Shown: positions 1,902 to 63,867, counted from the first letter of the stretch. The stretch: 64,000 nucleotides of DNA from Planctomycetota bacterium (GCA_031409275.1 JANNXA010000030.1:4702-68701), one strand, 5' to 3'. Translations and numbers: made by a program. Notes: generated by a model not told the origin, from the sequence alone.

Positions 1902-1976
1902 CGCCAGCTCTCCAGCGCGCGCCGGCGAAGCAAGGTGCGGCACGCGAGGAGGAATCGTAGCCCGGCCGCCGCGGCG

Positions 1977-8533: not shown

Positions 8534-8680
8534 GAGATCCGCCCGGCGAGTGTGAGGCCAACGGCCTTCCGCAACTGTCGCCAGTAACTAGCACGCGCCC
8601 GAACGACGCGATACCGCGACTTGTCGCACGCGTTAGCGGGATTCACCGACCTTCAACAGGGTTTTCACCGTTTGCGACGT

Positions 8681-11112: not shown

Positions 11113-11205
11113 GGAAGGACCTCGCAAAAGGACAAGGGGTGGGCCCCGGATCGAATCGCGTCGCCGTCATACGACCTCGGCGCGCGAGCGGTGCCCGCCG
11201 ATCCC

Positions 11206-11826: not shown

Positions 11827-11896
11827 GGGCGCCCGCCTCCTCTCAGAGCACGCGCAACGACGAACGCGTCGCGCAGAGACCGACCGAGAGAGGCTC

Positions 11897-12400
11897 TCAG
11901 GCGTTGCGGAACTGCGCGATGTCGCCCGGGCGGCGCAGCATCTTGTCGACCTCGCCTTGGTGCATCTCCTCGGTCATCAACATCTGCCGGCAATACTCCT
12001 CCAGCATCACCGACTTGCCCTCGACCAACGCCAGCAGCTTCTCATAGAGGACGAACGTCGCGCGCTCGTGGTCGAGCGACTCGCGCAGGATGTCGCTGAT
12101 CTCGTGCTGCTCCGTCTCGAGCAGGGGACCGATGCCGAGCGACGGGTGCGCGCCCAGATGGGTCACGTACTCGCCTGCCTGCTGCGCGTGAGTCATCGAT
12201 TCCTGCGCCTGCGCGCGCAGCCAACTGACGATCGGGATGCGGTGGAAGCCGTAGACCATCAGCGAGTAGTGCGTGTAACGAACAGCTCCGGCGAGCTCCA
12301 TCTCGAGGATGTGGTTCAACACCTCGACGACGGCCTTCACATCAAACGAGCTCTTCGTCGGTGCGCGGCTCGGGGCGCTGGCGGTACGGGGCTTGGCCAT
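11897..12400 (-). CDS. Ferritin-like protein / bacterioferritin
   Basis: Four-helix di-iron pattern: EMELAG..RY, ESMTHA, HE, EEMH. AGGAG RBS upstream. Confidence 0.8.
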   Translation of the reverse strand: MAKPRTASAPSRAPTKSSFDVKAVVEVLNHILEMELAGAVRYTHYSLMVYGFHRIPIVSWLRAQAQESMTHAQQAGEYVTHLGAHPSLGIGPLLETEQHEISDILRESLDHERATFVLYEKLLALVEGKSVMLEEYCRQMLMTEEMHQGEVDKMLRRPGDIAQFRNA

Positions 12401-31849: not shown

Positions 31850-31949
31850 CGATCCAACCTCGCTGATGGAGAAGTGGCGGGCGGGCGGCACGATCATGCC
31901 GAGCGCGCCCCATCCCGGGGTCGCGGGAGTCGCGCGTCGAGGAGTGAGG

Positions 31950-42845: not shown

Positions 42846-42888
42846 GGCGACAGAGGTTATAGAAGCGCGCCACCTGCGGAGCTGCGCC

Positions 42889-47500: not shown

Positions 47501-47610
47501 CCATCGCCGCAGTCGATGGGCGGCAGGACCCCGGTGGCGAGATCGCCCGCGGAACCACCGCCACCGCACGCGGGGACAAGCAAGGCAAGGAGGAAGAGGG
47601 GCGTCCGCAT
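44539..47610 (-). CDS. Large lipoprotein with Gly linker, beta-sandwich and helical barrel (possibly glycan-active)
   Basis: LVPAC lipobox and poly-Gly linker. PVRVGVPLP...ARWDDGSCKW, IDTG and GPVRAEV resemble exo-rhamnogalacturonan-lyase (PcRGLX)-like N-terminal domains. Function tentative. Confidence 0.6.
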   Translation of the reverse strand: MRTPLFLLALLVPACGGGGSAGDLATGVLPPIDCGDGGGGGGGSGGGGSGGTTPSTVSMGSFVNGERPMYLEIDQFADDQSFTVEFMNAPSDATEVTLYLSDRIVVATHPDPTTPGYFGIDLNSCEIISVSGTTYQGIVDGSRWNGITYIQGYLSTPRGGRLTSLVECHPDEALTTPPSSSIVFPIPLTTQEVLRPGRAGIDVVAQPVRVGVPLPPGQVFENGFGVPNLTLTGGATAGQFSTLARWDDGSCKWVLCEYLASLAAGATDNTVQVDKGSGSFGGAWIASTDGTLTTIDTGAMTVTIDSTVDDLFQSIRAGGLDLLSTAAGNRPHFWDAADAEWTWHKSKVTTRRNGPVRAEVEIDGSFTRTASPTDADRIYVRFYVEANQGESELRVTASLRDTSLQFPEHLLFRGFTYQATLNELGPFDVRMPAPALRGDSTTLNGGAIGSGQDAEFRLGYVSRSDYRLQTDSNSTAYFGFIQRNGVDLFAIEGVRERIGSTEYCGDAASGWFSAENELTDPSFLEVTSSASGRGVLFGIEHACRTWPVGLAAVGDGAIEVGLLPRKVPSDPHSYPLPYASAETRVFYLSFESAPASDPIAVATTFDYPLAARAALFAYNQSQVWPWKLVDEAQFKTYQNLAGIRATQPDASDPIRTVFRFAGETGGANNNWEETRRFYHWLRTGHGGSYLHSFFEAQYKADKMAWNIDDGALEDRQKVRNANAQVTRKSDMYDGSKHTFFQAVPDWAFTRGETPLLDSAKALSETILSPAISPNVQPYGNFVLGTYSAVTTAAMAALDLAPNAELEAWLRTIMYQWANVVFKQPNGFGVDTGMLGWQAPVGTPVGSATNLDGYMITWAAGKSSDKALYGYMSQQWTDLRGNAQAFHRFIHYRDHHAPGDPLVTNLLQRAPDLYHYARRGILDDHNRDTGDYYITDVFAGDGGNPNPPSCAPPGYYIDEPSTSAYANQSIINLLLEWKASETAYSYGVEMNRSMAEPTYQSMASDPILNDFVWRYLVHYGLLQP

Positions 47611-47734
47611 CAGCTCGAATCTAGCTCAAGTCCGCGCGTGGCGCCTGTCGCTCGACGTCGTTCCACGCGGCCAGGCCGCCTTTTTCGTGTGGAAACGATT
47701 GCGCTCGTCGCCGCCGCGGAGTCGGCGGCACGAG

Positions 47735-48146: not shown

Positions 48147-49706
48147 TCAATCGACCGTTCGCCAACTGCGGCCATCGCGAGTCAACAACTCGTCCGCCTC
48201 CTTCGGCCCGGCGCTGCCCGCGGCGTAGTTCGGGAAGCTGCGCGGCGGCAGCGATTGCCAGACGTCGAGCATCGGCGCGACCACCTTCCACGCCGCCTCG
48301 ACCATGTCGGCACGCTGGAAGAGCGTCGCATCGCCAGCCATCGCGTCGTACAGCAGGCGCTCGTAGCCCGTCGACGGCGTCGAGCCGAAATGGTCGGCGT
48401 ACTTGAAGTCCATCTGCACGCTGCCGAGGCGCACGGTCGCGCCCGGCATCTTGGCGCCGAACACCAGCGAGATGCCCTCGTTGGGTTGCACCGTGATGAT
48501 CAGCTGGTTGGGCGTCAGCTTCTCGACCGGCGTATCGCGGAACAGCGTGAATGGCGGCCGCTTGAAGGTGATCGCGATCTCGGTGTAGCGCTTCGCCATC
48601 GCCTTGCCGACGCGCAAGTAGAACGGCACGTTGGTCCAGCGCCAGTTGTCGATGTTGAGCTTCATCGCCACGTAGGTCTCGGTGCGCGAATCGGGGCGCA
48701 CCTTGGGCGTCGAGCGGTAGGCGGGGATCTTCTTGCTGCCGCTCTGCCCTTCGCCGTATTGGCCGCGCACCGTGCGCGCCAGCACCTCTTCGGGCGACAT
48801 CGGCTGCATCGCGCGCAGCACCTTGGTCTGCTCGTCGCGAACCGCGTCCGCCTCGAAGCTGATCGGCGGCTCCATCGCCACCAGCGAGATCAGCTGGAAG
48901 ATGTGGTTCGGGACCATGTCGCGCAGCGCGCCGCTCTTGTCGTAGTAGTCGCCGCGCGTCTCGACGCCGACCGTCTCCGCCACCGTGATCTGGACGTGGT
49001 CGACGTAGCGACGATTCCAGATCGGCTCGAAGATCCCGTTCGCGAAGCGGAACATCATCAGGTTCTGGACCGTCTCTTTCCCGAGGTAGTGATCGATGCG
49101 GTAGATCTGCCGCTCGTCGAGCAGCCGACGCAGCTCCGCGTTCAGCGCGCGCGCCGATTCGTAGTCGCGGCCGAACGGCTTCTCCACGATCACGCGCCGC
49201 CAGCGGCCTTCGGTCTCCTGCGTCAGGCCGGCCGCGGAGAGCTTGGCGACCACCTCGCCGAAGAACTCCGGCGCGGTCGCCATGTAGAAGAGCGCGTTGC
49301 CGCGCGTGTTGCGTTCCTTCTCGACGCGCGCCAGCACCGCCGCCAGCTTCTGGAAGGCGTCGCCCTCGTTGAAGTCGGCCTGGCAGTAGTAGACGCGTTC
49401 CTTGAGCCAGCCCCACTGCTCGGGCGTGAGCTCGCTGGTCGCGAACTCGCGCATGTCCGCTTCGAGCTTGGTGCGGTAGCCCTCGTCGCCGATCGCCTGG
49501 CGGGCGAAGCCGATGACCGCGAAGTCATCGGACAGCAGCCGTTCGCGCACGAGGTTGTAGAGCGCCGGGATGAGCTTGCGCTTGGTGAGGTCGCCGCCGG
49601 CACCGAAGATCACCAGCGCGCATGGCCCGACCGGCTTGCCCGATGCGATCGGTTCCACGGCGTTCGTCCTCGCAGCAGTGCCCAAGGTCCCGATGGGATC
49701 CGTCAC
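48147..49706 (-). CDS. zwf: Glucose-6-phosphate 1-dehydrogenase
   Basis: [34 protein letters not shown] and YERLL motifs. Confidence 0.97.
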
Positions 49707-52591
49707 GAGAGCGCCTCCGTCACCGCGTCGGCCAGCTTCTTCAATCCGCTGGCCACATCGCTGCCGAGATGGACGCGCAACGCGCGTCGTCCTCGCTCGG
49801 CCAGCACTTCGAAGTCACCGCGCGCCTGCGCCGCCTTGACGATCCCGAAGCTGTACTTCGCCCCGGGCACCGCCGCGTCGCGCGCATCGTCGCAGGTGAT
49901 CTGCACGAAGACTCCCGAGTTCGGCCCGCCCTTGTAGGCCTGTCCAGTCGAGTGCAGGAAGCGCGGGCCGAAACCCATCACGGTGGCGACGCGCTTCGCG
50001 TTCCTCACCTCGTGGCGCATCCGCTGGATCAGCGACTCGTGGGTCGCGGTCATGTCGACGTAGGCGAGGAAGCCGGCGTAGTCGCCCGGCTGCAGGCGCG
50101 CAACGTGCGCGCGCAGGAGCTTGGCGAGCGTCGCGCCGCCGCCCGCGGCCTGCTGCAGCGCGGCCGCGTTCTTCGCGTCGGCGAAGAGCTTGATGCCATC
50201 GCCGTTCCAGAAAGGCGTCTCCGCGGGCAGCGCGCCGCTCTGCTCGAACGCCGAGGTGATCTTCTTGGTCGCGATCTTGCTCGCTTCGACGTCCGGCTGA
50301 TCGAACGGATGGATGCCGAGCACCGATCCCGCCACCGCCGTCGCGACTTCGAGCACGAACATCTCGCCGGCGAGGTCGTAGCGGTCCGCGAGCGGGATGC
50401 GGATCACCGGATGGCCCGCCGCCGCCAGCGCGGTCAGCGCTTCGCTCGTGCGTGGGTCGACCTGACCTGGCAGTTCGAAGCTGAGGAAGACCCGGTCGCT
50501 GCCGTACTTCTCGGGACCGCCGAGGCACTCGCGATCGACCGGGATCAGCCCCTTGCCGACCTTGCCGGTCGACTCGGCGACGAGCTGCTCGATCCAGGCG
50601 CCGAAGTCGGCGATGCCCTGCGAAGTGACGACCGTCAGCTTGTCGCGTCCGAACTTCGCCGCGGCGCCGAGGACGAGTCCGAGGTGGACGCCGGGGTTGT
50701 CGCGGATGGACGAAGCCATGCACGCCTGCTTCATCGCCGCGGCGCGCTCGAGCAGCTTGGCGACATCGAGGCCCATCGCCGCCGCCGGAACGAGGCCGAA
50801 GTCGGAGAGCGCCGAGTAGCGGCCGCCCACGCTCTTCACGCCGTGGAAGATGCGGCGGAAGCCGTCGGCCTGCGCGACCTTCTCCATGTTGGAACCGGGA
50901 TCGGTCACCGTGATGAAGCGGCGACCTGCTTCCTTCGCGCCGACGACCTGCTTCACGCGCTCGAAGAACCACGCCTTGAAGATGTTGGGCTCGAGCGTGC
51001 TGCCCGACTTGCTGGAGACGCAGAAGAGCGTGCGCGTCAGGTTGATGCGCCGTTCGGTCGCGTGGAGCTGCGCGGGGTCGGTGGAATCGAGCACGACCAT
51101 CTGCGGCATGCCCGGCTGCGGCCCGAACGTCTCGGCCCACACTTCCGGGCAAAGGCTCGAGCCGCCCATGCCGAGCAGGCAGACGTGGGTGAAGCCCGCT
51201 TCCTTCACGTCCTTCGCGAGGTCGGTGAACTTCGCGAGCTGCTTCCGCTGCTCGTCGACGATCGTCAGCCAGCCGGTCCAGCTCGCCTCGTCGCCGCCGC
51301 TCCAGAGCTTCGCATCGGAAGCCCACAGTCGCGCGACCTTGCCACCCGCGGTCCAGTCGGCCAGCAGCTTGGCGAACTCGCCCTCGATCGCGGCCGGCAG
51401 GCGCACCGAGACCAGCGCGCTGCTGCCGTTGCTCGGCTCGACCGGCGTGCCGCCGTGCTTCGCCACGGCAGCGAGCAGCTTGTCGAACGCGTCCTTGAAG
51501 ATCTTCACGCCATCGGCCAGCAGCGCGTCGGTCGCGCTCTTCAACGAGACGCCGCACTTGGCGAGTTCGGCAAGCGTGCGCGTGGCACCCTCGAGATCGG
51601 CGGTGAGCGTCGGCTGCACGACGCCGTGATCCTTGAACGCCTCGTAGGTCGCCGGCGGAATCGTCTCCACCGTCTCGACGCCGATCAGCCCCTCGACGTA
51701 GACGACGTCGCGGTACTTCGGGTTCTTGGTGCTCGTCGAGGCCCACAGCAGGCGCTGCGGCTGCGCGCCCTTCGCCGCCAAGGCAGCCCAGCGCGGCCCG
51801 CTCTTCAATGCGCGGTAGTGCTGATAGGCGAGCTTCGCGTTCGCGATCGCCACCTTGCCCAGCAGCGCTTCGATGCGCGCCTTCTCGGCGGGGGTCGCCG
51901 CCTTCTTCGCCAGCTCTTCGAGCTTGCCGTCGATCAGCGAATCGATGCGGCTGATGAAGAAGCTGGCCACCGACGCGACGCGGCCTGGATCGCCGCCCTT
52001 GGCGACGAACTGCTCGATCCCGGCGAGCCACGCGTCCGCGACCGCTTCGTAGGCGTCGACGCTGAACAGCAGCGTGATGTTGACGTTGATGCCTTCGGCC
52101 AGCAGCTCACGCACGGCCGGAATGCACGGCGGTGTCGCCGGCACCTTGATCATCAGGTTCGCGCGATCGACCGACCTCCACAGGCGACGCGCCTCGGCCA
52201 GCGTGCCGACGCGATCGAATGCGAGTTCGGGTGAGACCTCGAGGCTGACGTAGCCGTCGAGGCGCTTGGTGGCTTCGTACACCGGCTTCAGCAGGTCGCA
52301 TGCGGCCTGGATGTCGGCGATGGCGAGGCGCTCGAAGACCGCTTTCGGATCGCGCGCGCACTCGGCGCCCGCCGCCGCGAGGTCCTTGCTGTAGTCCTTC
52401 GAGCCCGCGATCGCCTTCTCGAAGATCGCCGGGTTGCTGGTCATCCCGCGCAGACCGTCGCTGGCGATCATTCGCGCGAGCGAGCCGTCCTCGAGCATGC
52501 TGCGCTGGATGAAGTCGAGCCACACCGACTGACCGGCCGCGTTCAACTGGGCGAGACGCGCGGACGTCGACGAAGAGGTGGTGGAGTTCAT
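49703..52591 (-). CDS. Bifunctional transaldolase/phosphoglucose isomerase
   Basis: Tal: [27 protein letters not shown]. Pgi: [34 protein letters not shown]. Confidence 0.95.
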
Positions 52592-52977
52592 CAAGCGGCT
52601 TCCTTGCTCGGGGCACGGCACGGCGCGCCGGACCGGACGACCCGGCGGCAACCGTTGCGGCAGTATCGGCGGCGATCGGAAAGAACTTCAGGTTCGCCGC
52701 CTCGGCGAGATGTGGCCGGGTCGGATGCCGGCGTCGCGATCGGCGTGTCAGAGGCCACCGATTCCCCCGTAGGTGCCCTGACGAGCCGGGGTGGAAAGCC
52801 CGAAGTGGGCTGGGCGTGGTTCCCGGCAAGTGCAGTCGGCGATGGATCGGAAAACGACCCCATGCTGGGGAACGAGCGAACGAAAACCGCACGGGCCCCT
52901 GCTTTGCCTTCCGCCCTCTGCCGCCGGCCTCGGACAGCGATCGAGCTGCCCGCCGCTGGATCTCGGAGGGAATCACG

Positions 52978-55900
52978 ATGACCGCTGTTCTTTCGCCCCT
53001 GCGGCCGGTTCTTCCCGGACGCCGCTCGCTGCTGCTGCTCTGCCTGATCGCGGCCGCCTGCGCCGGCGATGACGGCAAGGACGGAGTCGACGGCTCCACT
53101 CCAACGACGCCGCTCAGTCGCGTTCTGACCAAGTGGGAAGACGGGCCGGGCGTGAACCTCGAGATCACCGGGGTCTCCGGCGCGACAGGGCCCTCGAACA
53201 GCTTCGTTCCGGGCGACCGCATCGCGGTCACCTTCACCGCGAAGCGCAACGACGGCAGCAACTGGGGGCTCGACGAGCTCGACCACGGGCACATCCTCGT
53301 TTCGGGCCCGACCTTCAACTACCAGCCGGTGATCGCCGAGCAGACGGACCTCTTCACGGCATCGATCGACAACGGCGACGGCACCTACACCTACAAGTTC
53401 GCGACAGCGATCCCGTCGACCTATCTCGAGCCGGCCAACGACTCCTCCGCGTTCGGTCCCCTCGACGGCGAGCTGCAGGGCGATCCGCTGCTGGCCGGCA
53501 CCTACACGATCGGCATGTTCGGCCGCTGGGAGTACACGGTCGACGGCGCGACATTCAAGGAGGTCGGGCAGGCGACGCGCGACGTCTTGTTTGGCGGCGA
53601 GACGACCACCACCGCCCGCGAAGTGGTGAAGACCGACAACTGCAACCAGTGCCATGTCGCGCTGCAGGCCCACGACGGCGAGATCCGCAGCGCGCAGCTC
53701 TGCGTGCTTTGCCACACCTCGGGAGCCGAGGACACCAGCGGCAACGGTGTCTCGATCGATTTCCGCGTGATGATCCACAAGCTGCATGACGGCGCCCACC
53801 TGCCTTCGGTACTCGGTGTGGCAACCAACAGCGACGGCTCGCGCAACTACGCCGCGACCAAGGTCCCCTACGAGATCACCGACGACGAGGGCGAGGTTAC
53901 GGACTTCTCCGACGTCGCCTTCCCGGTCTGGCCGAACCTCAACACGCCGATGCCGCGCGACTTCGGCTATTCGGCCCGGTCGTCGACGGAGAAGACGCTC
54001 GAAGCGACGATGCTCCAGGGCGCGACGCAGTGCTCGAAGTGCCACGGCGATCCCGACGACTCGGGCCTGCTGACCGGTCCGCTGACGGCGCCGGCGCAGG
54101 GCGGCCTCGCCTTCTCGCAGCCCTCTCGACGTGCGTGCGGCAGCTGCCATGACGACATCGACTGGACGCTGCCCTACGTCGCGAACCAGTTGCAGATGGA
54201 TCCGCAAAGCGACGACTCGTCGTGCCTGCCGTGCCACGCGCCGAGCGGCGTTGCGGGCGTCGGCCTGCCTCTCTCGACCGCGGCCGCGCACCTCCATCCG
54301 CTGAACGACGCCACCATCAACCCGGGCGTGAACTTCACCATCACCAGCGTCAGCGGAGCGAGCGGACCGGGCGGGAACTTCGCCAACGGCGACAAGCCGC
54401 GCATCGAGTTCACCGTCACCGACGACGACGACAACGACGTGCCGCTGCAGACGCTCGATGGCACCAGCACGCTGCTGGTCGGCCCAACCGCCAACTACCA
54501 GCACGTCTTCCCGTTTGCGAGCCCCAACGGCGCTTCGAGCGCGCTGCCGGTCGACTTCGCCGGTCGCTTGCAATCGTCGAGCACCACGAACAAGGGGACG
54601 ATGAGCAAGCTCGTCGGCGCCACCGATTCCGAGACGCTCATCGTCCAGTTCACCCCGTCGTCGACGGCGTTCACCGTCACCGGCACCAACAGCGGCTTGC
54701 TCGGCAGCGGAACGCTCGCGGCCGCGACCAGCACCAACTCCGACAGGTCCTCGATCAGCAGCGTGGAGCTCGCGCCCGGCGCCGTGGCTGAGACGATCAC
54801 GGTGCTCTTCACCAACCCGACCGCCAGCAGCACGACGTTCGCGGTCACGGGCTCGGTCAGCGGCGCGATGGGCAGCGGGACGATGCCCGCGTTCATCAAC
54901 GCGTCGACCCTCTTCACCTCGAATGACGGCAAGGTGTCGTTCATCGTCTCGAGCGGCGCGAACGCGTTCGCGTCCAATCAGACGATCCACCTCACGATCT
55001 TCCGCGGTGGCGGCGCCAACCCGGTGCTCTTCGCCATCGTGGTCGGCCGCACTTCGTTCGCGATCAACGACCGCATTTACTACGACACGGTCGCGGATGA
55101 CTCGTCGTACGAGTTCGCGCTGCCGATGGATCTGCCCAACGAATTCCTCGGCGACGGCAACGGCAGCATCGGGCAGGTCCTGACCGCGGCCAACGTGCCG
55201 GTCTACTACGGACGCCAGGTGCTCTCGGAACGCATCGCGCTCGATGCTTCCGGGCCGACGACCCTGATCGCCGCTTCGACCGAGCGCGCCCGCTACGTCG
55301 ACGTCGCAGCAATCGACAGCGACCTTGCGAACGGCGACAACGTGGTGATCGACGACGGGATCGCCAGCTTCGAGGAGTACGCGCAGGTCGGCTACATCGA
55401 CAGCGCGAAGAAGCGCCTCTGGTTCCGCACTCCGCTGCGCTTCAGCCATGCCGCGACGACCGGCACCGTGCAGGAGGTGACGCTCAGCTTCCGGCAGGAG
55501 GGCGTGAACTACACGCTCGATCCGGCCACCGGCACCATCACGTCGCTCGCCGCCTTCACCACCGGCAACGCCATCGTGATGAACTACCGCACGGACGGAG
55601 CCTTCGGTTGGTATCGCCGCGCCGGCGACGCGCTGCAGGCGGTCTACGTCCCGCCCATCAACGACTCGCCCGACCTCGACTCGAGCTGGGGCGAATGGTC
55701 GGGGCTGACCTACCTGAGCGGCACCTACAGCGCCTCGATCTGGGGCCGCAAGAACAAGATCCTCGGCCTGCAGAACGAGGTGCAGACCTACAACGGCATC
55801 GGCGAAGCATCGGTCGCCTCGCTCCTCTACGGCAGCGCGGCCGCTGAAGAGCCGCACGCGCTGGTCTCGAGCGGCGCGAACTGCGAGAGCTGCCACACGA

Positions 55901-56406
55901 TGGTCGGGCCGTTCCACGGCGGCAACCGTCGCGATTTCAACACCTGTGTGCTCTGCCACGGCGTCGCGGGCAACGAGGACTGGCCGATCTACGGCACCAC
56001 CGTCGCGACCGCCGCCACCACCGGCACGACGATCGACTTCCGCGGAATGCTCCACAAGATCCACATGGGCGAGGAGCTGACGAACGCCGCGACCTACGAG
56101 GTCCTCGGCTTCAGCTCGAGCTCGAACAAGTACGGCGAGGTGGTCTTCCCCGCGCAAGCCGGCCACACCATGAACTGCACCAAGTGCCATGGAAGCTCCA
56201 GCAACTGGTACGCGCCGAGCGCCCGCCAACACCCCGCTCAGGCACTGCCGACGCGGGCGTGGCGATCGGCGTGCGGCGCCTGCCATGACTCCGACGCCGC
56301 CGGTGCGCACTTCGACGTCATGACCGCCGGCGGACTGGAATCGTGCGAGGTCTGCCACGGCCAGGGCACTGAGTTCTCGGTCGAAGTCGTGCACAAGGTT
56401 CGGTGA
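52978..56406 (+). CDS. Decaheme c-type cytochrome lipoprotein, OmcA/MtrC-like (~1142 aa)
   Basis: GGAGG RBS, AAAC lipobox, 10 CxxCH in two blocks of five, F..M[IL]HK[LI]H motifs, duplicated halves. Confidence 0.9.
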   Translation: MTAVLSPLRPVLPGRRSLLLLCLIAAACAGDDGKDGVDGSTPTTPLSRVLTKWEDGPGVNLEITGVSGATGPSNSFVPGDRIAVTFTAKRNDGSNWGLDELDHGHILVSGPTFNYQPVIAEQTDLFTASIDNGDGTYTYKFATAIPSTYLEPANDSSAFGPLDGELQGDPLLAGTYTIGMFGRWEYTVDGATFKEVGQATRDVLFGGETTTTAREVVKTDNCNQCHVALQAHDGEIRSAQLCVLCHTSGAEDTSGNGVSIDFRVMIHKLHDGAHLPSVLGVATNSDGSRNYAATKVPYEITDDEGEVTDFSDVAFPVWPNLNTPMPRDFGYSARSSTEKTLEATMLQGATQCSKCHGDPDDSGLLTGPLTAPAQGGLAFSQPSRRACGSCHDDIDWTLPYVANQLQMDPQSDDSSCLPCHAPSGVAGVGLPLSTAAAHLHPLNDATINPGVNFTITSVSGASGPGGNFANGDKPRIEFTVTDDDDNDVPLQTLDGTSTLLVGPTANYQHVFPFASPNGASSALPVDFAGRLQSSSTTNKGTMSKLVGATDSETLIVQFTPSSTAFTVTGTNSGLLGSGTLAAATSTNSDRSSISSVELAPGAVAETITVLFTNPTASSTTFAVTGSVSGAMGSGTMPAFINASTLFTSNDGKVSFIVSSGANAFASNQTIHLTIFRGGGANPVLFAIVVGRTSFAINDRIYYDTVADDSSYEFALPMDLPNEFLGDGNGSIGQVLTAANVPVYYGRQVLSERIALDASGPTTLIAASTERARYVDVAAIDSDLANGDNVVIDDGIASFEEYAQVGYIDSAKKRLWFRTPLRFSHAATTGTVQEVTLSFRQEGVNYTLDPATGTITSLAAFTTGNAIVMNYRTDGAFGWYRRAGDALQAVYVPPINDSPDLDSSWGEWSGLTYLSGTYSASIWGRKNKILGLQNEVQTYNGIGEASVASLLYGSAAAEEPHALVSSGANCESCHTMVGPFHGGNRRDFNTCVLCHGVAGNEDWPIYGTTVATAATTGTTIDFRGMLHKIHMGEELTNAATYEVLGFSSSSNKYGEVVFPAQAGHTMNCTKCHGSSSNWYAPSARQHPAQALPTRAWRSACGACHDSDAAGAHFDVMTAGGLESCEVCHGQGTEFSVEVVHKVR

Positions 56407-56468
56407 TGCGCACGCTCGCTTCGAGAGCACCGAGGCCACGGGAGATCGCTGCGATGGAGGCAACCGCG

Positions 56469-57878
56469 ATGACACTTCAGCGGTCCGCCCGCTCGATGCT
56501 GCTGCTGGCAACTGCCGCTCTGCCCGGTCGTGCCGTCGCGCAGGACGTCGGCACGACGCCCGCCGAGACACCCGCGGCGCCCGAAACCGCGGCCGCGCAA
56601 GAGACCGCGGTCGCGCTCCCTTCGCTCGCGCAGGGAGACGACGCACTCGACCTTTCGGGCTGGTTCTCGCTGCAGTACCGCTTGCGACGGACCAGCAGCA
56701 CCACCGACCAGGACCTCTTCGGACTGCTCGGTGCCGACTGGCGTGACGCCGAGCGCGATCCCCTCTCGCTCCACCTCGTGACGCGCAGCTCGTGGGACGT
56801 CGACGGTCGCCAGGACCGCAATGGCGGCTACGCCTTCGACAGCCTCGCCGACAGCTACGACCACGCCTTCGTCGCCCACCTCCTCGAAGGCTGGGCGGGC
56901 GGCCGCGTCGGCTCGATCGGCGATTGGCGCGCGGGCCGCTTCTATCTCGAGGACACGCCGGTCACGACCTACATGGACGGCGCTCGCCTGGCGACAGCGG
57001 CCGCGGGCCCGCTCAAGGCGCGCATCGGCGGCTACGGCGGCCTGCCGACGCATCTCTACGAATCGTCGGCGCGCGACGACCGCATCTACGGCGCCTTCGC
57101 CGAAGCGCGCGGATGGACCAAAGGACGCACGCGCTTCGACTGGATGCACGTCGACGACGAGCTGCGCGCGAGCGACCGCGAGGATGACCTGCTCGCGCTG
57201 TCGCAATGGCAGCAGCTCGGAGAACAGGTCGACCTGTTCGGGCGCTTCACCTGGATCGCCTCCGAAAGTCGCGACCTCACTCTGCGCGCCGGCTACCGCG
57301 ACGTCCCCACGGCGCTGCGCGTGCAGCTCGCCTGGTACGAGCTCTTCCATGAGCAGACCGACCTCTCCTACGAGTTCGACCCCTTCTCGGTCGTCGCGTT
57401 CGACTATCTGCCGTACCGACAGGCGTCGCTGGTGATCGGCAAGGGGCTCGGTGACCACTTCGACCTCGCTGCCGGCGTCGACGTGCGACGGCTCAACGAC
57501 GGCGACCTCGAGCGCGCGTTCAACCACGAGTTCGAGCGCTACTACGTCGTCCCCTCGGTCACCGGCTGGCCCAGCGAAGGCACTTCCGCCTCGGCCACCT
57601 TCGAGCTGTGGGACGCCGACACGGAGCGCTACCGGACCATCGGAGCCGACCTCGACCAGGAGATCGCGAAAGGGCTCTCCGTCGGCGCGTTCACCTCGTT
57701 CTCGCTCTACCGCTACGACCTCTACCAGGCGCGGGAGCTCGACCGCGTGCGGAGCTGGGGCACCCGCCTCGATTGGCACGCGACCAGCCGCCTGCGACTG
57801 CGTCTCGACTGGACGTTCGAGGACGATCGCTTCGACCGCTACCAGACTGCGAGGGTGCGAGCCACATGGAACTTCTGA
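56469..57878 (+). CDS. Outer-membrane beta-barrel (porin of a porin-cytochrome complex)
   Basis: GGAGG RBS, signal peptide, amphipathic strands, C-terminal RVRATWNF; lies between two multiheme genes. Confidence 0.75.
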   Translation: MTLQRSARSMLLLATAALPGRAVAQDVGTTPAETPAAPETAAAQETAVALPSLAQGDDALDLSGWFSLQYRLRRTSSTTDQDLFGLLGADWRDAERDPLSLHLVTRSSWDVDGRQDRNGGYAFDSLADSYDHAFVAHLLEGWAGGRVGSIGDWRAGRFYLEDTPVTTYMDGARLATAAAGPLKARIGGYGGLPTHLYESSARDDRIYGAFAEARGWTKGRTRFDWMHVDDELRASDREDDLLALSQWQQLGEQVDLFGRFTWIASESRDLTLRAGYRDVPTALRVQLAWYELFHEQTDLSYEFDPFSVVAFDYLPYRQASLVIGKGLGDHFDLAAGVDVRRLNDGDLERAFNHEFERYYVVPSVTGWPSEGTSASATFELWDADTERYRTIGADLDQEIAKGLSVGAFTSFSLYRYDLYQARELDRVRSWGTRLDWHATSRLRLRLDWTFEDDRFDRYQTARVRATWNF

Positions 57879-58894
57879 AACCGATCACGCGCGGCGCGCT
57901 GCTGCTGGTCCCGATCGGGATCGTCGGCTGCCTGATGTTCAACGGATTCGGCGGCCCCTCCGGCCCCGCGTTCCCCCATTCCAAGCACGGCGAGGAAGCG
58001 GGGCTCGAGTGCGCCTCGTGCCACCGCACCGCCGCCACCGGCGAAGCGGCGGGCATGCCGACCGAGAAGCAGTGCATGCTCTGCCACGAGGAGCTCGACC
58101 GGGACAAGCCGCTGGAGAAGCGGGCGAGCGCCTTCTTCGTCGACCATGTGCTGCAGGCGCGGCGCGGAAGCGAACTCGGCGACGAGGTGATCTTCTCGCA
58201 CGCTGCGCACGTGACCGGCAAGTCGATGGCGTGCGCCCAATGCCACTCCGGCGTCGAAGGGTCGGACGAACTGCCCGCCGATCTGCATCTCGCGATGATC
58301 GACTGCATGGGTTGCCACTCGCAGGCAAGCCTCAGCAACGATTGCGCGGTCTGCCACAAGACGATCCGCGCCGAAGTGCCCCCGCCCACCCACATCGGAG
58401 CGTGGAAGCGCGAGCACGGCCCGACCTGCCGCGCCGGCGGTGTCGGCGTCGGCAGCGACGGCGATGCAGAGGCCACCTGCATGTACTGCCACGGTCGCAA
58501 CGAATGCGAGTCGTGCCACCGCACCGAAGCGCCCGCCGACCACAACAACTGGTGGCGTCGCCGCGGCCACGGCCTCGCGATGGCGATCGACCGCGACCGC
58601 TGCAGCACCTGCCACCAGGCTGACTCGTGCGACCGCTGCCACCAGGAGAGCGCGCCCGTCAGCCACACCGCCGGTTTCGGTTCGCCGCGCGACCGCCACT
58701 GCGTCGGCTGCCACTTCCCGCTCGGCAACGACGAAGGGTGCGCGACCTGCCACCGCGGCACGCCGAGCCACCAGCTCGCTGCTCCGCTGCCGCCTGGCCA
58801 CACTCCCGGCATGAACTGCCGCCAGTGCCACGGGCTCACCGCGCCGCTCCCGCATCCCGACAAGGGCGACAACTGCAGCACCTGCCACCGTTGA
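57866..58894 (+). CDS. 13-heme periplasmic c-type cytochrome
   Basis: 13 CxxCH motifs in ~342 aa; FPHSKH and FSHAAH (c3-like) motifs; hydrophobic N-terminus. Confidence 0.9.
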   Translation: MELLKPITRGALLLVPIGIVGCLMFNGFGGPSGPAFPHSKHGEEAGLECASCHRTAATGEAAGMPTEKQCMLCHEELDRDKPLEKRASAFFVDHVLQARRGSELGDEVIFSHAAHVTGKSMACAQCHSGVEGSDELPADLHLAMIDCMGCHSQASLSNDCAVCHKTIRAEVPPPTHIGAWKREHGPTCRAGGVGVGSDGDAEATCMYCHGRNECESCHRTEAPADHNNWWRRRGHGLAMAIDRDRCSTCHQADSCDRCHQESAPVSHTAGFGSPRDRHCVGCHFPLGNDEGCATCHRGTPSHQLAAPLPPGHTPGMNCRQCHGLTAPLPHPDKGDNCSTCHR

Positions 58895-58905
58895 GGAGTC
58901 GACCG

Positions 58906-59637
58906 TTGAAGTGGTGCGGGCCGCCGGTGTTGCCGTTGCTGCTGGGCGTCGTCGCCGTCGGCGGCGCGTTCGGGGTGACGACGGCACTGCGGAGCGGCGA
59001 CCGTGCACAGCTCGATCGTTCCGCGCGCGATCCCGCCACGAACGTCGCGATCGCCGACGATGCGCAATGGGAGGCGGCGCGGCGTGAGCTGCTCGCGCCA
59101 CCGGCTCATGCGGGAGCGGCGGCCCCCGCCCGCGAACCGTCGCCCGAGACGCTCGAATCGTTCGCGGACGTGGCGCGCGCGCGACTGGTCGCGAAGGCGC
59201 CACTGGCCGAGAAGGCGGCATGGCTGCTCAAGGCGCGCGCGGTCTCACCGACGCTCTACGACGAGCTCTGCGCGATGGTCCTGGCGGGCGGCGAGCAGGT
59301 CGACACGCGGCTGCGCGAGACGATCGTGAGTCGGTTCAATGAGGAGGCGCCGCAATCGAGCCGCACCGCGCAGCGCTCGATCGACCAGGTCGTCTTCGAG
59401 TCGACGCTGCCGCTCTACCTGCGCCTCGGCGCCGCGCGCACGCTCTTCGAGCAGGCCGAGGCCCCGCTGCTGGACGAACTGGTCCCGCGCGTCGCACCGC
59501 TCGCCGACGCCTCTCTGCGCGACGCGATCCTCGCCGCGTTGGACGAGAACCCATCCGCTGCCGCAGGACCCGCGCGCCAGCAACTGATCCGTGCGCACGG
59601 CTGGACCGCCAAGGCGACGGCCGACACGAACGAGTGA
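58906..59637 (+). CDS. Membrane-anchored helical (HEAT-like) hypothetical protein
   Basis: GAGGAG RBS, TTG start, TM segment VLPLLLGVVAVGGAFGV, helical C-terminus. Confidence 0.6.
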   Translation: MKWCGPPVLPLLLGVVAVGGAFGVTTALRSGDRAQLDRSARDPATNVAIADDAQWEAARRELLAPPAHAGAAAPAREPSPETLESFADVARARLVAKAPLAEKAAWLLKARAVSPTLYDELCAMVLAGGEQVDTRLRETIVSRFNEEAPQSSRTAQRSIDQVVFESTLPLYLRLGAARTLFEQAEAPLLDELVPRVAPLADASLRDAILAALDENPSAAAGPARQQLIRAHGWTAKATADTNE

Positions 59638-59749
59638 CGCGGCTCACGGCGCCAGCGGCTCGACTCGACTCTTGAGCTCGATCGTCCCGGCGCGCCGCAG
59701 CTGCAACGCCTGCCCCGAAACGCGCGCGCGATTCGCCGCGATCGGCCGC

Positions 59750-60132
59750 GGCGTCGTCGGCGAGGATCAACTCCTCTTCGCGTGCGAGCTGATTGAACTG
59801 CTCGATCGGATCGCCAAGGGCGACGCCGGGTGTTCGGGAAGAGCTTCTCCAGGAGTCGCGCTCCCTCCGCGGCGTGGGGATCGGGCAGCGCGTCGATGGA
59901 CTGCAATGCCGCTCGCGACACCGCCTCGCGCAGCGTGAGGTCGCGATTCGTCTCGGCCCGCTCGCGCGTCACGCCGTCCCACGGGATCACCGCGTCGGGA
60001 GACGCGATCGTGCCGAGCTCCAAGGCGACGAGCGAGTTGGCGATCTTGAAGGTCGACGCCGGCGAAGCCGCTCGACAGCAGGAGCAACGCGACAGCTCCG
60101 CCACGAGTCATCTTCCGCAGCTCCATCGCCAT
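59750..60132 (-). pseudogene. Degraded class D (OXA-like) beta-lactamase/transpeptidase
   Basis: PASTFKIANSLVALELG...IPWDG...RDLTLREA present, but the signal peptide is in another frame and the SxV/YGN/KTG parts are missing. Confidence 0.7.
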
Positions 60133-60151
60133 CGCTCCGATCGTGCCCCGC

Positions 60152-62947
60152 TCAGCGCACTCCGCTTCCAGCCGTGAAAAACGCGGCGCGATAGAGATCC
60201 GTCCCCAGCACGACGCGCGCGGCGCCGCGCCGCACGACAGCAACTCGGCGCGCCGCGTAGAGCGGCACGATGCAGCCGTCGAGCAGGCTTTGGATCTGCG
60301 GCGCCAGCGCCTCCATCTTGGCCGGGTCGGTGCACGCCGCCGCCGCCTCGACCAGCGCGGCCAGCCGTGCCTGGTACGGATCGCCAGCGACCGGCGGCAG
60401 GAAGCGATGGAAGATCGAGAGCCACGGGTCGTAGGGCACGCCCCAGGTCGACTCGAGCTGGAACTCAAAGTCGCCCGCCGCGAGCGCCGCGTCGTAGTCG
60501 GCGCCGGCGAGCGCACGCACCGCGAGGCCGTACCCGCTCTTCGCAAGTTGCGCGTCGAGCACTTCGGCGATCGTCTGCTCGCGCGGCGATTCGGCGTGGA
60601 TCAGCAGCCGAAGGCCGAAAAGCGCATCGCCGGCTGCCTCGTCCTGCGGTCCGCTCCCGGCGATGAATCTCGCGCCGAGTTCACCGAGATTCGGCGGGAA
60701 CAGCGGCAGCAGACCGTGCCGCCGTTTCGTGGTCCACGCGGTGAGCGTTGGCGCGGCCCACTGCTGGCACGGGTCGGCCAGACCGCCCTCACACCGCTTG
60801 ATCAGCTCGGCACGATCGAGCGCGTGCAGCACCGAGTTGCACCAGTCGGGGTCGACTCCCGCTCGCGTTGCCAGGTACCAGACCGACGAACCGGGCGATT
60901 CGACGATCTCGAGATCGTCACGTCCGCGCAGCTCCGCGAGTCGCGCCCGCGGCACCAGCTCCTGCCAGCCGTCGGCGACGACGTCGACTTCGCCCGCCAG
61001 CAGTGCGTCGAGCGGCGACTCTTCGGCACCGAAGCGCACCAGATCGAGTCGTTCGACGCGTGACGCGGTGTCGCCCCGTATCGCGACGGCGGCCAGATCG
61101 GCTGCGCGGTCGCGCAGGTCGCAGCGCTCGAAGCGCAGCGTCCGCTCGTCCTCCGCGGTGCCGAGGCAGCGGTAGGGCCCGCTGCCGATCGGCGCGACGG
61201 CGTTGCCTTCGCCGTCCAGCGCGCCCGGGCCGCGAATCGCGCACGGGTTGATGGCGCAAAGGTCGACCAGCACGGCCGCGGGTTGCGCGAGATGGAGCGT
61301 CAGGTGGCGGGCGTCGTCCACGACGACGGCGGTCACGTGGCGCGCGTTGCGCAGCCAGGCGTGCTCGGGCAAACCGAGCCAACGTTTGAAGTGGAGCGCG
61401 ACGGCAGCGGCATCGACCGGCGTGCCGTCGTGGAAGCGCGCCCCCTCGCGCAGCTCCAACGTGATCGCCTTGCCGTCGGCTGCCACACGCCAGGACGAGG
61501 CGAGCGCAGGCGCGATCCGTCCCTGCTCATCGATCCGCACCAACGTCTCGTAGAGCGTCGTCTTCGCCTCGAATCCGCCGCGATAGGAGAGCGGCGAGAT
61601 CGCCTCGGTGGGGCCCGGCTTGCCACGGATGGCGACGCGCAGCGCGCCATCGGCCGCGCGCGGCGCGAGGGCGGAGTTCGACTTCGCGGGCGGCGGCACG
61701 CCGTTCTCCGGTCGCGGATTCACCGCGGCGCCGGGCAGACCGGTTCCGGGCGGGCGCGCGAGCAGGAAGATCCGCGATCCGTACCCCGAGCCCATCAGCT
61801 CGTCGGTCGCGTTGCGGCCATCGACCTCGACCGCCTCGAGCCAGTGGCCCTTGTCACGCTCCTCGAACAGTACCTCGACCTTCCACGCCGACTCGCCGGC
61901 GCGACGCGAGAGCAGTTCCACGCGCGCGCTGTAGCCGAAAACGGCGACTGTCTCGACGGCGGGATCGGGATCGAAGCGGCCGGCCGCGATGCCGCGTGGC
62001 CCTTGCGGTCCGGCGTAGATCACCTCGCGCGTCCACTCGCCCTCGACCGCTCCCTTCACTGCGAGGCGCAGCACGACGCCATCGTCGCGCGTGACGTAGA
62101 GCACCTCGCGTTCGCCCGGCGCCGATCGGCGGCGCGCGATGCGGCCGAAGCCCATCGGCTCCTTCAGCAGCTCGCGCACTTCGAGGCCGTCGTTGGCGGC
62201 GGCCCGCATCAGCAACACTTCACCGGTGCGGCAGATGCCGGCGATCCACGGCGCGGCAGCGGGCGCGGCGGCGGCGGGGCCGCTTGGCAGCAACAGCGCT
62301 TGGCGAACGCGTCCCGCCAATTGCGCGCGCTTCACCACGTCGAACTCGAAGCCGCCACTCCGCGCGCGCGGCTCGTAGACGTTGCCGAGATGAGTGAAGA
62401 CGAGGAGCTCACTGCCGGGTCGACTCAAGTCGAGGTCGCCGGCGACAGCGGTGTGGAGCTCCTCGGCCGGGAAGGCGGCGATGCGCGCGGTGTCCATCGT
62501 GCCATCGCGGTGGACGACGATCTGGTAGAGGTTGCCGCGCTTGCCGCCGGTGTAGATCTCGCGCTCGGGCCGACGCGGGTCGAGCTCCACCTGCGCGATG
62601 GCGCCGAGCCACTCGTGGTCCTCGACGGTTTGCCACGGCGTCCACTTGCCGCTGTACGAGCAGAGCAGGATGCAGCGCCCCTTGTCGTCGAGGCCGAACG
62701 CCTCGAGCGCGCCGTTCATCTCGAACGCGTCGAGCACGCCACAGGTCCAGATGCCGACGTCGTTGTCGTAGACGAGGCTCGCGTTCCAGCCCGCTTGCGC
62801 CGGCAGCGCGATCTCCTGCTTTGAGGCGTCCTGCCGGGGAGGAGTCGTTTGCGGCGCGAGCGTGGCGCTCATCATCACGGCGGCAAACGGAGCGCACGGC
62901 CATCGCCGCCAGCGATGGGGAACACTGCGAACGAACGACGAGACCAT
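60152..62947 (-). CDS. Beta-propeller fused to a family-5 ABC substrate-binding domain (NikA-like)
   Basis: YETLV...PALASSW...LREGARFHDGTPVDA, HAWL, PIGSGPY and TWGVPYDP motifs; N-terminal FG-GAP-like repeats (GDLD, GRFD). Confidence 0.8.
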   Translation of the reverse strand: MVSSFVRSVPHRWRRWPCAPFAAVMMSATLAPQTTPPRQDASKQEIALPAQAGWNASLVYDNDVGIWTCGVLDAFEMNGALEAFGLDDKGRCILLCSYSGKWTPWQTVEDHEWLGAIAQVELDPRRPEREIYTGGKRGNLYQIVVHRDGTMDTARIAAFPAEELHTAVAGDLDLSRPGSELLVFTHLGNVYEPRARSGGFEFDVVKRAQLAGRVRQALLLPSGPAAAAPAAAPWIAGICRTGEVLLMRAAANDGLEVRELLKEPMGFGRIARRRSAPGEREVLYVTRDDGVVLRLAVKGAVEGEWTREVIYAGPQGPRGIAAGRFDPDPAVETVAVFGYSARVELLSRRAGESAWKVEVLFEERDKGHWLEAVEVDGRNATDELMGSGYGSRIFLLARPPGTGLPGAAVNPRPENGVPPPAKSNSALAPRAADGALRVAIRGKPGPTEAISPLSYRGGFEAKTTLYETLVRIDEQGRIAPALASSWRVAADGKAITLELREGARFHDGTPVDAAAVALHFKRWLGLPEHAWLRNARHVTAVVVDDARHLTLHLAQPAAVLVDLCAINPCAIRGPGALDGEGNAVAPIGSGPYRCLGTAEDERTLRFERCDLRDRAADLAAVAIRGDTASRVERLDLVRFGAEESPLDALLAGEVDVVADGWQELVPRARLAELRGRDDLEIVESPGSSVWYLATRAGVDPDWCNSVLHALDRAELIKRCEGGLADPCQQWAAPTLTAWTTKRRHGLLPLFPPNLGELGARFIAGSGPQDEAAGDALFGLRLLIHAESPREQTIAEVLDAQLAKSGYGLAVRALAGADYDAALAAGDFEFQLESTWGVPYDPWLSIFHRFLPPVAGDPYQARLAALVEAAAACTDPAKMEALAPQIQSLLDGCIVPLYAARRVAVVRRGAARVVLGTDLYRAAFFTAGSGVR

Positions 62948-63228
62948 GAATTCGCTCCTCTTCGACCCGATGGGCGCCGAGCGGCGGCAGCGCCGCAACC
63001 CCGGTGCCGACGTTGCGGACCGGAGTGTTGCGAGGCTGGCTCGACACTCTCCCGGATCACCTTCGGGCGGTCGTCACCGCCGTGCCATGAAACGGCGAGG
63101 CGCCGGCGGCATCCGTTGCGGGCATGCCGGCCACCGAGGTGCGCCCCCTTCACCGCTCCCACTTCAGCACCGCTGGCCCGCTTGCGGCGGGCGAGCTAGC
63201 GTTCCGTTTCCCCAAGAGGCGGAACCTC

Positions 63229-63867
63229 ATGGCGAACGGTGCGAGCCGTCCGCAAATGGTCGGTCCATCGATGCCCGACGATCGCGAGCTGCTGAACGGC
63301 TTGCGCCGCGGCGATGCGGCCGCGTTCGAGCGGCTGGTGCGCGACCACTCTCCGCGCCTGCTCGCCACGATCCGCCACATCGTGCGGCATGACGAGGACG
63401 CGCACGAAGCGTTGCAGGACGCCTTCCTCTCGATCTGGAAGGCGATCGATCGCTTCGAGGGCGCCTCGGGGCTTTCCACCTGGCTGCACCGCGTGGCCGT
63501 CAACGCCGCGCTGATGAAGCTGCGCGCCAAGCGACGGCGCCCCGAACTGGCGCTCGACGACCTGCTGCCGAAGTTCACGGACGACGGCCACGCCGTCGAC
63601 TTGGCCGAGCCGTGGCAGGCCGATGGGGTCGAGCTGGCCTCGCGTACCGAGGTGCGCGCCATCGTGCGGGAGCTGATCGAACAGCTGCCCGACAACTACC
63701 GCGTCGTGCTGCTGCTGCGCGACCTCGAGGAGCTCTCGACCGATGAGGTCGCGCGGATGCTCGAGGTGACGCCCAACGCCGTGAAGATCCGTGTCCACCG
63801 CGCGCGCCAGGCGCTGCGCACGCTGCTCGATCGCCGCTTCTCCCGCCCCGAACTTCGCGAGACGTGA
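63229..63867 (+). CDS. ECF sigma-70 factor
   Basis: AFERLV, DAHEALQDAF, STWLHRVAVN, LP..YRVVLLLRD and VKIRVHRAR motifs. Confidence 0.93.
   Translation: MANGASRPQMVGPSMPDDRELLNGLRRGDAAAFERLVRDHSPRLLATIRHIVRHDEDAHEALQDAFLSIWKAIDRFEGASGLSTWLHRVAVNAALMKLRAKRRRPELALDDLLPKFTDDGHAVDLAEPWQADGVELASRTEVRAIVRELIEQLPDNYRVVLLLRDLEELSTDEVARMLEVTPNAVKIRVHRARQALRTLLDRRFSRPELRET

Follow-up and report, generated by a model that had tools for sequence, protein, structure and literature searches.

In Shewanella, cytochromes of the OmcA/MtrC family act as terminal reductases at the cell surface, and in both Shewanella and Geobacter the periplasmic cytochrome that works with the outer-membrane components is a soluble protein. 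Planctomycetes are abundant in sediments and soils and have rarely been counted among the organisms that respire metals or humic matter. The analysis described here concerns four genes (g1 to g4, positions 52978 to 59637) within a 64,000-nucleotide stretch of DNA, hereafter the window, from a Planctomycetota bacterium (GCA_031409275.1 JANNXA010000030.1:4702-68701). Three of these genes probably specify an electron conduit across the outer membrane, in which a decaheme cytochrome of the Shewanella type is joined to a predicted beta-barrel and a 13-heme cytochrome of a different kind.

Among the closest described systems are the porin-cytochrome (Pcc) clusters, which were defined, in the part of the original account drawn on here, by a porin-like protein of 18-22 predicted strands that always adjoins a periplasmic cytochrome with 5-14 hemes (Shi et al. 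2014, PMC4245776). The same part of that account includes two-gene clusters from Ca. Kuenenia stuttgartiensis and Anaeromyxobacter, in which the cytochromes are 338-344 amino acids in length and contain 12-14 hemes, and it presents the Kuenenia pair (kuste4024/4025) as a porin-like protein and a cytochrome with no outer cytochrome (PMC4245776). That pair was subsequently proposed from transcript data, according to the sections of the paper cited here, to provide the outer-membrane step in electrode respiration by anammox bacteria (Shaw et al. 2020, PMC7188810, preprint 10.1101/855817). Additional porin-cytochrome clusters have been reported in metagenome-assembled genomes (MAGs) of Planctomycetota (Suarez 2023, PMC10732223; ghost-rock study 2026, PMC13264449); the available passages of the second of these reports describe a group in which a large decaheme cytochrome adjoins a porin of approximately 20 strands, and record bc1 genes beside some of the clusters. 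An mtrC gene is mentioned in one Planctomycetota MAG (in the relevant excerpt of PMC10367259), and a peat preprint from 2026 (10.64898/2026.05.27.727921) refers, in its accessible portion, to sequence-divergent porin-cytochrome architectures in Verrucomicrobiota and Acidobacteriota. A literature search across such portions of published text found no description of the ActA-like head, the 13-heme lipoprotein, the strict pairing or the frequency that are reported below, and supplementary tables may list clusters of this sort.

A preliminary description of the window had noted four co-oriented and tightly spaced genes, with 10 and 13 CxxCH heme motifs encoded on either side of a 469-residue protein ending in Phe. 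The map of open reading frames (ORFs) confirmed that arrangement, with all four frames on the plus strand and at the same positions, and the gene make-up is that of a porin-cytochrome conduit, as had been supposed. The genes and their parts are as follows.

52978-56406, plus strand: g1, 1142 amino acids, with 10 CxxCH motifs and a lipobox
52978-53061, plus strand: g1 signal peptide and lipobox (LIAAAC, Cys28, followed by AGDDG), which aligns with the N-terminus of MtrF
53617-54255, plus strand: g1 pentaheme domain with hemes 1-5, of MtrC domain II type (PF22113, residues 214-426)
54256-55857, plus strand: g1 enlarged middle region (domain III and an insert), by which hemes 5 and 6 are set 553 residues apart
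55858-56406, plus strand: g1 second pentaheme domain with hemes 6-10, of MtrC domain IV type (second PF22113/TIGR03507 stretch)
56469-57878, plus strand: g2, 469 amino acids, with the C-terminus ...RATWNF
57866-58894, plus strand: g3, 342 amino acids, with 13 CxxCH motifs and a lipobox
57866-58375, plus strand: g3 head, an ActA/c7-like pentaheme module with hemes 1-5 and two F-x-H-x-x-H motifs
58376-58894, plus strand: g3 tail, a stretch of 172 residues that carries eight hemes (one for every 21.5 residues), partly in repeated di-heme units
58906-59637, plus strand: g4, 243 amino acids, with one hydrophobic segment

The coding sequence of g2 overlaps that of g3 by 13 nucleotides, two alternative starts for g2 (at 56403 and 56406) both overlap the stop codon of g1, and g4 begins 11 nucleotides beyond the g3 stop codon on the same strand. 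A GGAGG sequence lies 9-13 nucleotides ahead of the g1 ATG. Because nearly all of the cysteines in the two cytochromes sit within CxxCH (all 20 of those in g1 outside of its signal peptide, and 26 of the 28 in g3), their heme motifs are not the product of chance; CxxCH was found in only two of the 25 other ORFs called in the window, with two motifs in each.

On the evidence of profile and alignment scores, g1 is classified as a true decaheme lipoprotein of the OmcA/MtrC family. It scored 247.9 bits against TIGR03507, the model of that family (curated cut-off 209.3), and 149.6 bits against PF22113, the MtrC/MtrF pentaheme model (cut-off 30), over two separate stretches; it further aligned to MtrF (3pmq) with an E-value of 5.5e-9, with the lipobox and the heme motifs in register. 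The CxxCH motifs of hemes 1-5 are located at residues 222, 242, 352, 387 and 416, and those of hemes 6-10 at residues 969, 990, 1067, 1099 and 1123, and the Cys-x-G-D-D-G context of the lipobox recurs in relatives. The middle region opens with a repeat of the beginning of domain I (53146-53192 against 54322-54368), as would be expected if the protein follows the duplicated domain plan of MtrC. The gap between hemes 5 and 6 amounts to 553 residues in g1, 355-376 residues in 15 relatives, 544 residues at locus L010 and approximately 175 residues in MtrF (as counted from the alignment), so that the middle region of g1 is about three times as long as that of MtrF; searches of Pfam and of PDB sequences with this region returned no match.

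The Shewanella structures of the MtrC family contain a conserved disulfide (CX8-15C) in domain III. Because g1 possesses no cysteine beyond its signal peptide and heme motifs, it is without this disulfide, which may be a feature of the Shewanella clade only. The long form of g1 is common to at least 60 clusters, and many of these proteins have already been named as OmcA/MtrC family decaheme cytochromes by the Joint Genome Institute (JGI). The source genome also contains six secretin genes, the products of which could handle export of g1. Elsewhere in the same genome (contig C12, L050:4556-7042, minus strand), an 829-amino-acid frame with nine CxxCH motifs, one PF22113 match and one Big_9 bacterial immunoglobulin domain, adjoined by no barrel gene, possibly encodes a second surface cytochrome.

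The product of g2 matched no Pfam or NCBIfam family, and a profile built from its relatives found nothing significant among PDB sequences (the best E-value, 0.064, was to an unrelated phage protein). A signal peptide is present, cysteine is absent, aromatic residues make up 13% of the protein and its isoelectric point is acidic; its hydrophobicity alternates strictly up to the C-terminal Phe (F469), which is nearly invariant among relatives. Approximately 20-28 short amphipathic segments were counted by a crude scan, and the core of the family alignment is almost free of insertions and deletions. Weak Pfam matches among 92 family members were to Porin_4 (nine members), BBP2_2 (four), OMP_b-brl (four) and MtrB_PioB (two), and the remainder went almost exclusively to other families of outer-membrane barrels. 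Atlas models of two homologues (P0008 and P0002, respectively 39% and 82% identical) displayed template modelling (TM) scores of 0.73-0.85 to clusters of outer-membrane proteins; the Atlas neighbours of such homologues, from Nitrospirota, Ignavibacteriota and Deferribacterota, serve as leads only. These properties point to a protein that is probably an outer-membrane beta-barrel of roughly 20 strands and that falls in no named family. The group of its relatives is large, with 902 representatives at 50% identity matched by the profile (E ≤0.001). A null check of the barrel profile against the profile of the adjoining cytochrome found likeness only in the signal peptide. At one locus (L016:7338-10346), a barrel and a 13-heme cytochrome appear to share a single frame of 976-1002 amino acids (P0155); it was rejected as a true fusion and is probably a frameshift or assembly error, because likeness to the barrel ends at residue 415 and gives way to an out-of-frame linker that resembles nothing.

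The third gene encodes a lipoprotein (lipobox IVGC, Cys22) that can be divided into two parts. The head of the protein, which contains hemes 1-5, resembles ActA of Alternative Complex III: the ActA chains of that complex matched the profile of the g3 family with E-values between 8e-27 and 2e-22, and residues 14-165 of g3 are 34% identical (E 1e-22) to the genome's own ActA-like pentaheme cytochrome, on contig C16, with all five motifs in register. The QrcA model reached 61.9 bits on g3, below its cut-off of 180. The match of an MtrA chain (6r2q_A) to the same family profile was not significant (E 0.36), and none of the MtrA-type models in NCBIfam matched g3 at E ≤1; by these comparisons, g3 is placed with the c7/c3/ActA-like proteins, and not with MtrA. 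An alignment of 25 sequences shows no variation in the 13 CxxCH motifs, in Cys22 or in 12 other histidines, and almost none in a thirteenth histidine (H302), such that the 13 histidines outside of the motifs could supply the second ligands for bis-His ligation of every heme. In the tail, the pattern CxxCH-x4-CxxCH-x4-P-x2-H occurs twice and is likewise invariant, and this part may reside inside the lumen of the barrel. Proteins of the family are 335-347 amino acids long at 21 of the 25 loci and 349-366 at the other four, where the starts are less certain.

The association of g2 and g3 is strict. Among 401 Planctomycetota genomes, evenly drawn from the phylum and including the source genome, the barrel was found in 84 and a g3-type cytochrome (counted at E ≤1e-40) in 81, all of which lie among those 84; the cytochrome never occurred alone, and the three genomes with a barrel only carry weak or partial barrel matches. 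Of 95 barrel places, 86 (distributed over 80 genomes) have a g3-type gene directly downstream, with a median gap of 45 nucleotides. A pattern scan further identified 25 loci that encode a relative of g2, and at every one of them an ORF with 13 CxxCH motifs starts at, or just past, the point where the barrel match finishes. The two genes thus form an obligate pair. Lineage labels of the Planctomycetota are attached to 22 of these 25 loci, which bears out the planctomycete origin proposed in the preliminary description; two of the loci (L018 and L019) derive from MAGs in the OFTM series of an earlier survey (Suarez 2023, PMC10732223), and 15 of the barrel-positive genomes belong to one family (f34).

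The association of this pair with a surface cytochrome is looser. Matches to TIGR03507 were found in 44 of the 401 genomes (above the cut-off in 40), and 36 of those 44 also contain the barrel; the distance from the barrel to an MtrC-type match is at most 5 kb in 28 genomes and at most 12 kb in 32. When 28 related loci were searched by tblastn, a synteny check of the kind that the preliminary description had suggested, g2 and g3 were each present at all 28, g1 at 18 and g4 at one. The usual gene order is barrel, 13-heme cytochrome and MtrC-type cytochrome, and the MtrC-type gene comes first in the window and at the same-genus locus L004. In a tree of barrel sequences, the window and L004 have L005, a locus with the genes in their usual order, as a neighbour (support 100/100); the cytochrome-barrel-cytochrome order, which had been taken as a trait of the system, is accordingly a recent rearrangement at the level of the genus. 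Nor is the conduit a one-off: the pair is present in 80 of the 401 genomes, a two-gene form of it fits the Kuenenia cluster described in 2014 (in the cited part of PMC4245776), and the locus in the window is an ordinary, rearranged member of a widespread planctomycete family, probably of the Pcc class. At one locus of that family (L032, genome G376), MtrC-type decaheme genes at 1625-5560 (minus strand) and 8089-12399 (plus strand) flank a single barrel/13-heme pair, and at another (L011) there is apparently one MtrC-type gene on either side; these arrangements suggest that paralogous surface cytochromes share one conduit.

At related loci, the pair is accompanied by additional genes for electron transfer. 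In a scan of 159 flanking ORFs at 20 loci (drawn from 175 ORFs, with 13-heme frames and heme-free frames of more than 1000 amino acids set aside), the neighbours included an MtrC-type cytochrome with two PF22113 stretches at 14 loci, a NapC/NirT-type cytochrome at eight, a c554-type tetraheme cytochrome at eight, cytochrome b/Rieske genes at two (L010 and L033), ResB at two and a NiFe hydrogenase at one. At a single locus, a c554-type cytochrome, an ActA-like pentaheme cytochrome, a molybdopterin protein and NrfD follow in series directly after the pair (L015:10351-16449). None of these types, iron-sulfur (FeS) and NrfD genes included, was found beside the operon in the window. The source genome does contain the same module on contig C16 (L049:1354-8297), with a c554-type tetraheme cytochrome, an ActA-like pentaheme cytochrome, a molybdopterin/FeS protein and NrfD, and this Alternative-Complex-III-like module is a candidate for the partner on the quinol side.

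Taken together, the gene content, the family of g1, the obligate pairing of the barrel and 13-heme genes and their frequent linkage to MtrC-type and quinol-oxidising genes, all of which are observed, make it probable that g1, g2 and g3 constitute a three-part conduit that carries electrons outward across the outer membrane. We infer the fold of the barrel, its threading by the cytochrome, the placement of g1 on the cell surface and the flow of electrons outward. According to this model, the g2 barrel would form a sheath in the outer membrane and g3 would act as the wire, with its ActA-like five-heme head taking up electrons in the periplasm and its slim eight-heme tail running through the barrel; g1, on the cell surface, would then hand the electrons to insoluble or large acceptors, such as Fe(III) or Mn(IV) minerals, humic matter or an electrode. 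The most likely exit for electrons from the quinol pool would be the Alternative-Complex-III-like module located elsewhere in the genome, a route that is favoured because no NapC/NirT quinol dehydrogenase was found. The heme number fits the Pcc class of 18-22 predicted strands and 5-14 hemes, as it is defined in the cited part of PMC4245776, and the size of the predicted barrel is compatible with it. The outward direction is the least sure step of the model, and is only somewhat favoured over its opposite.

Several observations weigh against this proposal. The source genome (completeness 92.9%) yielded no NapC/NirT match, and the window contains no quinol-oxidising gene. The genome encodes two heme-copper oxidases, which make an inward flow of electrons to oxygen just as feasible. 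Both g1 and g3 are lipoproteins, so that their topology may differ from that of the systems in Shewanella and Geobacter. No TIGR03507 match was found in 48 of the 84 genomes that bear the barrel, and the surface decaheme cytochrome is therefore optional; the conduit as a trait is also dispensable, because the whole of a stretch that includes g1 to g4 is missing from a genome of the same genus (G231, described below). Finally, a search of the literature found no biochemical study of any member of the barrel/13-heme family.

The explanation that best survives as an alternative is that the same conduit operates in the inward direction, with electrons from Fe(II), Mn(II), reduced humics or a cathode passing to periplasmic cytochromes and from there to an oxidase or a nitrogen oxide reductase, in the manner of MtoAB or PioAB. 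Conduits of the Mtr/Mto type are reversible in principle, according to the cited part of PMC4245776; the genome combines its two oxidases with c554-type cytochromes, two of which are encoded approximately 5 kb from one of the oxidases, on contig C55; genes of the bc type adjoin the pair at L010 and L033; and this DNA was traced only to metagenome runs on freshwater sediment from a single study, possibly the one it derives from, with no RNA data set listed among them. Against these points, the oxidising conduits MtoAB and PioAB lack an MtrC-type surface cytochrome in the descriptions given in that part of the same paper (PMC4245776), and NapC/NirT quinol dehydrogenases stand beside the pair at eight of the 20 loci, as they do in reducers. 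Inward operation of the conduit in the window is thus regarded as unlikely, and outward transfer remains the preferred interpretation.

A more ambitious version of the outward model, which we regard as quite doubtful, would have g3 serve as a plug-in wire derived from ActA, with its head docked on a quinol oxidase of the Alternative Complex III type (as the gene arrangements at L015 and on C16 might indicate) and its tail threading the barrel to reach the MtrC-type decaheme cytochrome. A single wire from quinol to mineral would then have been built of parts from Alternative Complex III, Pcc and Mtr systems; and, with roughly one fifth of planctomycete species carrying the core pair, the phylum would represent a large and overlooked participant in the cycling of iron, manganese and humic matter in sediments.

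It is also conceivable, and considered very unlikely, that no trans-membrane wire exists at all, with g2 serving as a conventional porin or as a channel for export; the cytochromes, periplasmic or anchored to a membrane, would then act on soluble substrates and be linked to it only by co-regulation or assembly. The lipid anchor and ActA-like head of g3 are typical of cytochromes of the cytoplasmic membrane, the absence of an MtrC-type gene from the 48 barrel-bearing genomes noted above would be in keeping with such a role, and the fold of g2 and its complex with g3 are putative. The strict pairing (both genes in 81 genomes, the cytochrome alone in none, and a weak or partial barrel alone in three), the overlap of the two genes and the fixed length of the cytochrome (335-347 amino acids at 21 of 25 loci) are, however, hard to explain without a physical complex of g2 and g3. 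The MtrC family is moreover a surface family, and the tail of g3, at one heme per 21.5 residues, leaves little room for a substrate site, such that the three-part conduit is again the interpretation that is favoured.

That g4 might be a fourth working component, for example an anchor in or partner at the cytoplasmic membrane, is suggested by its start 11 nucleotides after g3 on the same strand and its retention at 49% identity in L004, and is highly improbable in light of its presence at one of 28 loci (against all 28 for g2 and g3), the MtrC-type gene that takes its position in most loci, and its lack of a heme motif or of any family match above cut-off. The sole relative of g4 found by tblastn is that same-genus copy in L004; the ORF is real and conserved within the genus, and is probably not a core part of the conduit, contrary to its initial listing as a component. 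The earlier label of a helical membrane protein goes back to one N-terminal hydrophobic stretch and an Ala-rich sequence; no Pfam match lay above cut-off.

The genomic setting of the operon is that of a variable stretch in a window of 67-73% G+C throughout. The genes g1 to g4 are flanked by a divergent gene for a fused transaldolase/glucose-6-phosphate isomerase and by a convergent gene for a 948-amino-acid protein. Features and neighbouring genes of the window are the following.

52652-52977, no strand: intergenic region between the divergent transaldolase/glucose-6-phosphate isomerase gene and g1, the presumed promoter region (from the ORF map)
52576-63358, no strand: variable stretch of approximately 10.8 kb, present in the window and in one genome of the same genus (G337) and missing in another (G231)
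60152-62998, minus strand: 948-amino-acid protein in which an SBP_bac_5 domain for solute binding lies at the C-terminus and the N-terminal half (about 500 amino acids) has no assignment
49703-52651, minus strand: fused transaldolase/glucose-6-phosphate isomerase, 982 amino acids
48147-49706, minus strand: glucose-6-phosphate dehydrogenase, which forms an ordinary pentose-phosphate pair with the adjoining fusion gene
42496-44514, plus strand: 672-amino-acid homologue of di-heme cytochrome c peroxidases (CCP_MauG)
31017-36791, plus strand: 1924-amino-acid protein with ThuA and DUF6797 domains

A scan of positions 52400-60300 found no sigma-70-like site, so that a promoter upstream of g1 is presumed from the layout only, and no terminator on the plus strand was found at the operon. 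On contig C81 of G231 (L054), the sequence that corresponds to window positions 48183-52575 continues directly at 63359-63802, with the transaldolase/glucose-6-phosphate isomerase gene adjoining a gene for an extracytoplasmic function (ECF) sigma factor and the 10.8 kb between them absent; this junction demonstrates that the stretch with g1 to g4 and the minus-strand 948-amino-acid gene is present or absent within the genus. G337 (locus L004) is collinear with the window over g1 to g4, the minus-strand gene and the sigma factor, at 82-84% identity, so the SBP_bac_5 gene inside the variable stretch is retained there. Neither a tRNA gene nor flanking repeats were found at the edges of the stretch. 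The window gene at 44539-47625 is likewise missing in G231, and a second transaldolase-like stretch, 47% identical, occurs elsewhere in genomes of the genus.

The wider interest of this family lies in its combination of a surface cytochrome of the Mtr type with an ActA-headed cytochrome and a barrel from outside the Mtr group, in a phylum where the barrel is found in about a fifth of the genomes sampled (84 of 401). Should it operate as a conduit, two textbook systems, Mtr and Pcc, would be seen to exchange parts, and surveys that search for MtrAB beside MtrC would miss loci of this type. For the porin-cytochrome pair of anammox bacteria, which received its name in 2014 and was implicated through transcript data in 2020, a large set of relatives becomes available, some of which are in cultivable lineages. 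A pair of this kind had thus been noticed in anammox bacteria before.

Comparison with Shewanella MtrCAB reveals both shared and divergent features. The g1 protein groups with MtrC, OmcA and MtrF in one family, as a lipoprotein with five plus five hemes and a putatively duplicated domain plan, and the overall logic of a surface cytochrome, a barrel and a periplasmic cytochrome is held in common. The two systems differ in that g2 is not MtrB or PioB: PF11854 had no match on g2 (at E ≤1) or anywhere in the genome, and it matched only two of 92 members of the g2 family, weakly (best E 0.0012). The predicted barrel is also smaller, at approximately 445 mature residues, than MtrB, for which 28 strands are predicted in the cited part of PMC4245776. 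Whereas MtrA is a decaheme cytochrome, g3 contains 13 hemes, is a lipoprotein and displays no significant likeness to it (E 0.36, against E-values of 8e-27 to 2e-22 for the ActA chains), and g1 itself departs from MtrF in the spacing of hemes 5 and 6 (553 against about 175 residues) and in being without the domain III disulfide. The preliminary description of the conduit as non-canonical thus applies to its barrel, which as claimed is not MtrB, and to its 13-heme cytochrome, which as claimed is not MtrA-like; it does not extend to g1, a regular member of the OmcA/MtrC family by its score (247.9 against 209.3 for TIGR03507).

The likeness to Alternative Complex III is confined to one portion of g3. 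Hemes 1-5 can be aligned to the entire ActA module (PDB 6f0k, 6btm, 6lod and 8k9e), and the resemblance takes in two F-x-H-x-x-H motifs as well as the anchor, membrane or lipid, at the N-terminus; in contrast to ActA and QrcA, g3 has eight further hemes and is encoded with a barrel and not with ActB-F, in an operon without ActB/ActC or QrcBCD.

There is also a correspondence to Pcc systems. Like the Geobacter type (OmaB-OmbB-OmcB), the locus encodes a small porin-like barrel that adjoins a multiheme cytochrome, often together with an outer lipoprotein cytochrome, and the barrel and cytochrome co-vary, as is also described in the cited part of PMC4245776; the two core genes adjoin one another at 25 of 25 loci and in 80 of 84 genomes, and the 13 hemes lie within the range of 5-14. 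Unlike that type, its outer cytochrome is of the Mtr and not the OmcB kind, and its inner cytochrome is lipid-anchored and ActA-headed. A link to the two-gene Kuenenia form is provided by locus L031 (genome G132, family f34, 41% GC), where a barrel gene and a 14-CxxCH ORF (359 amino acids from stop to stop) occur with no outer cytochrome. Its two proteins are homologous to g2 (25% identity, E 1.6e-33) and to g3 (33%, E 4e-44), and in the barrel tree it groups with two further loci, of which one bears the label Ca. Brocadiia (support 91/94); a profile scan with the Brocadiia-type barrel matched only itself and one relative. From its fit to the published description, the L031 pair presumably represents the kuste4024/4025 form, relative to which the locus in the window adds an MtrC-type decaheme cytochrome, carries 13 hemes in place of 14 in its paired cytochrome and shares a low level of sequence identity.

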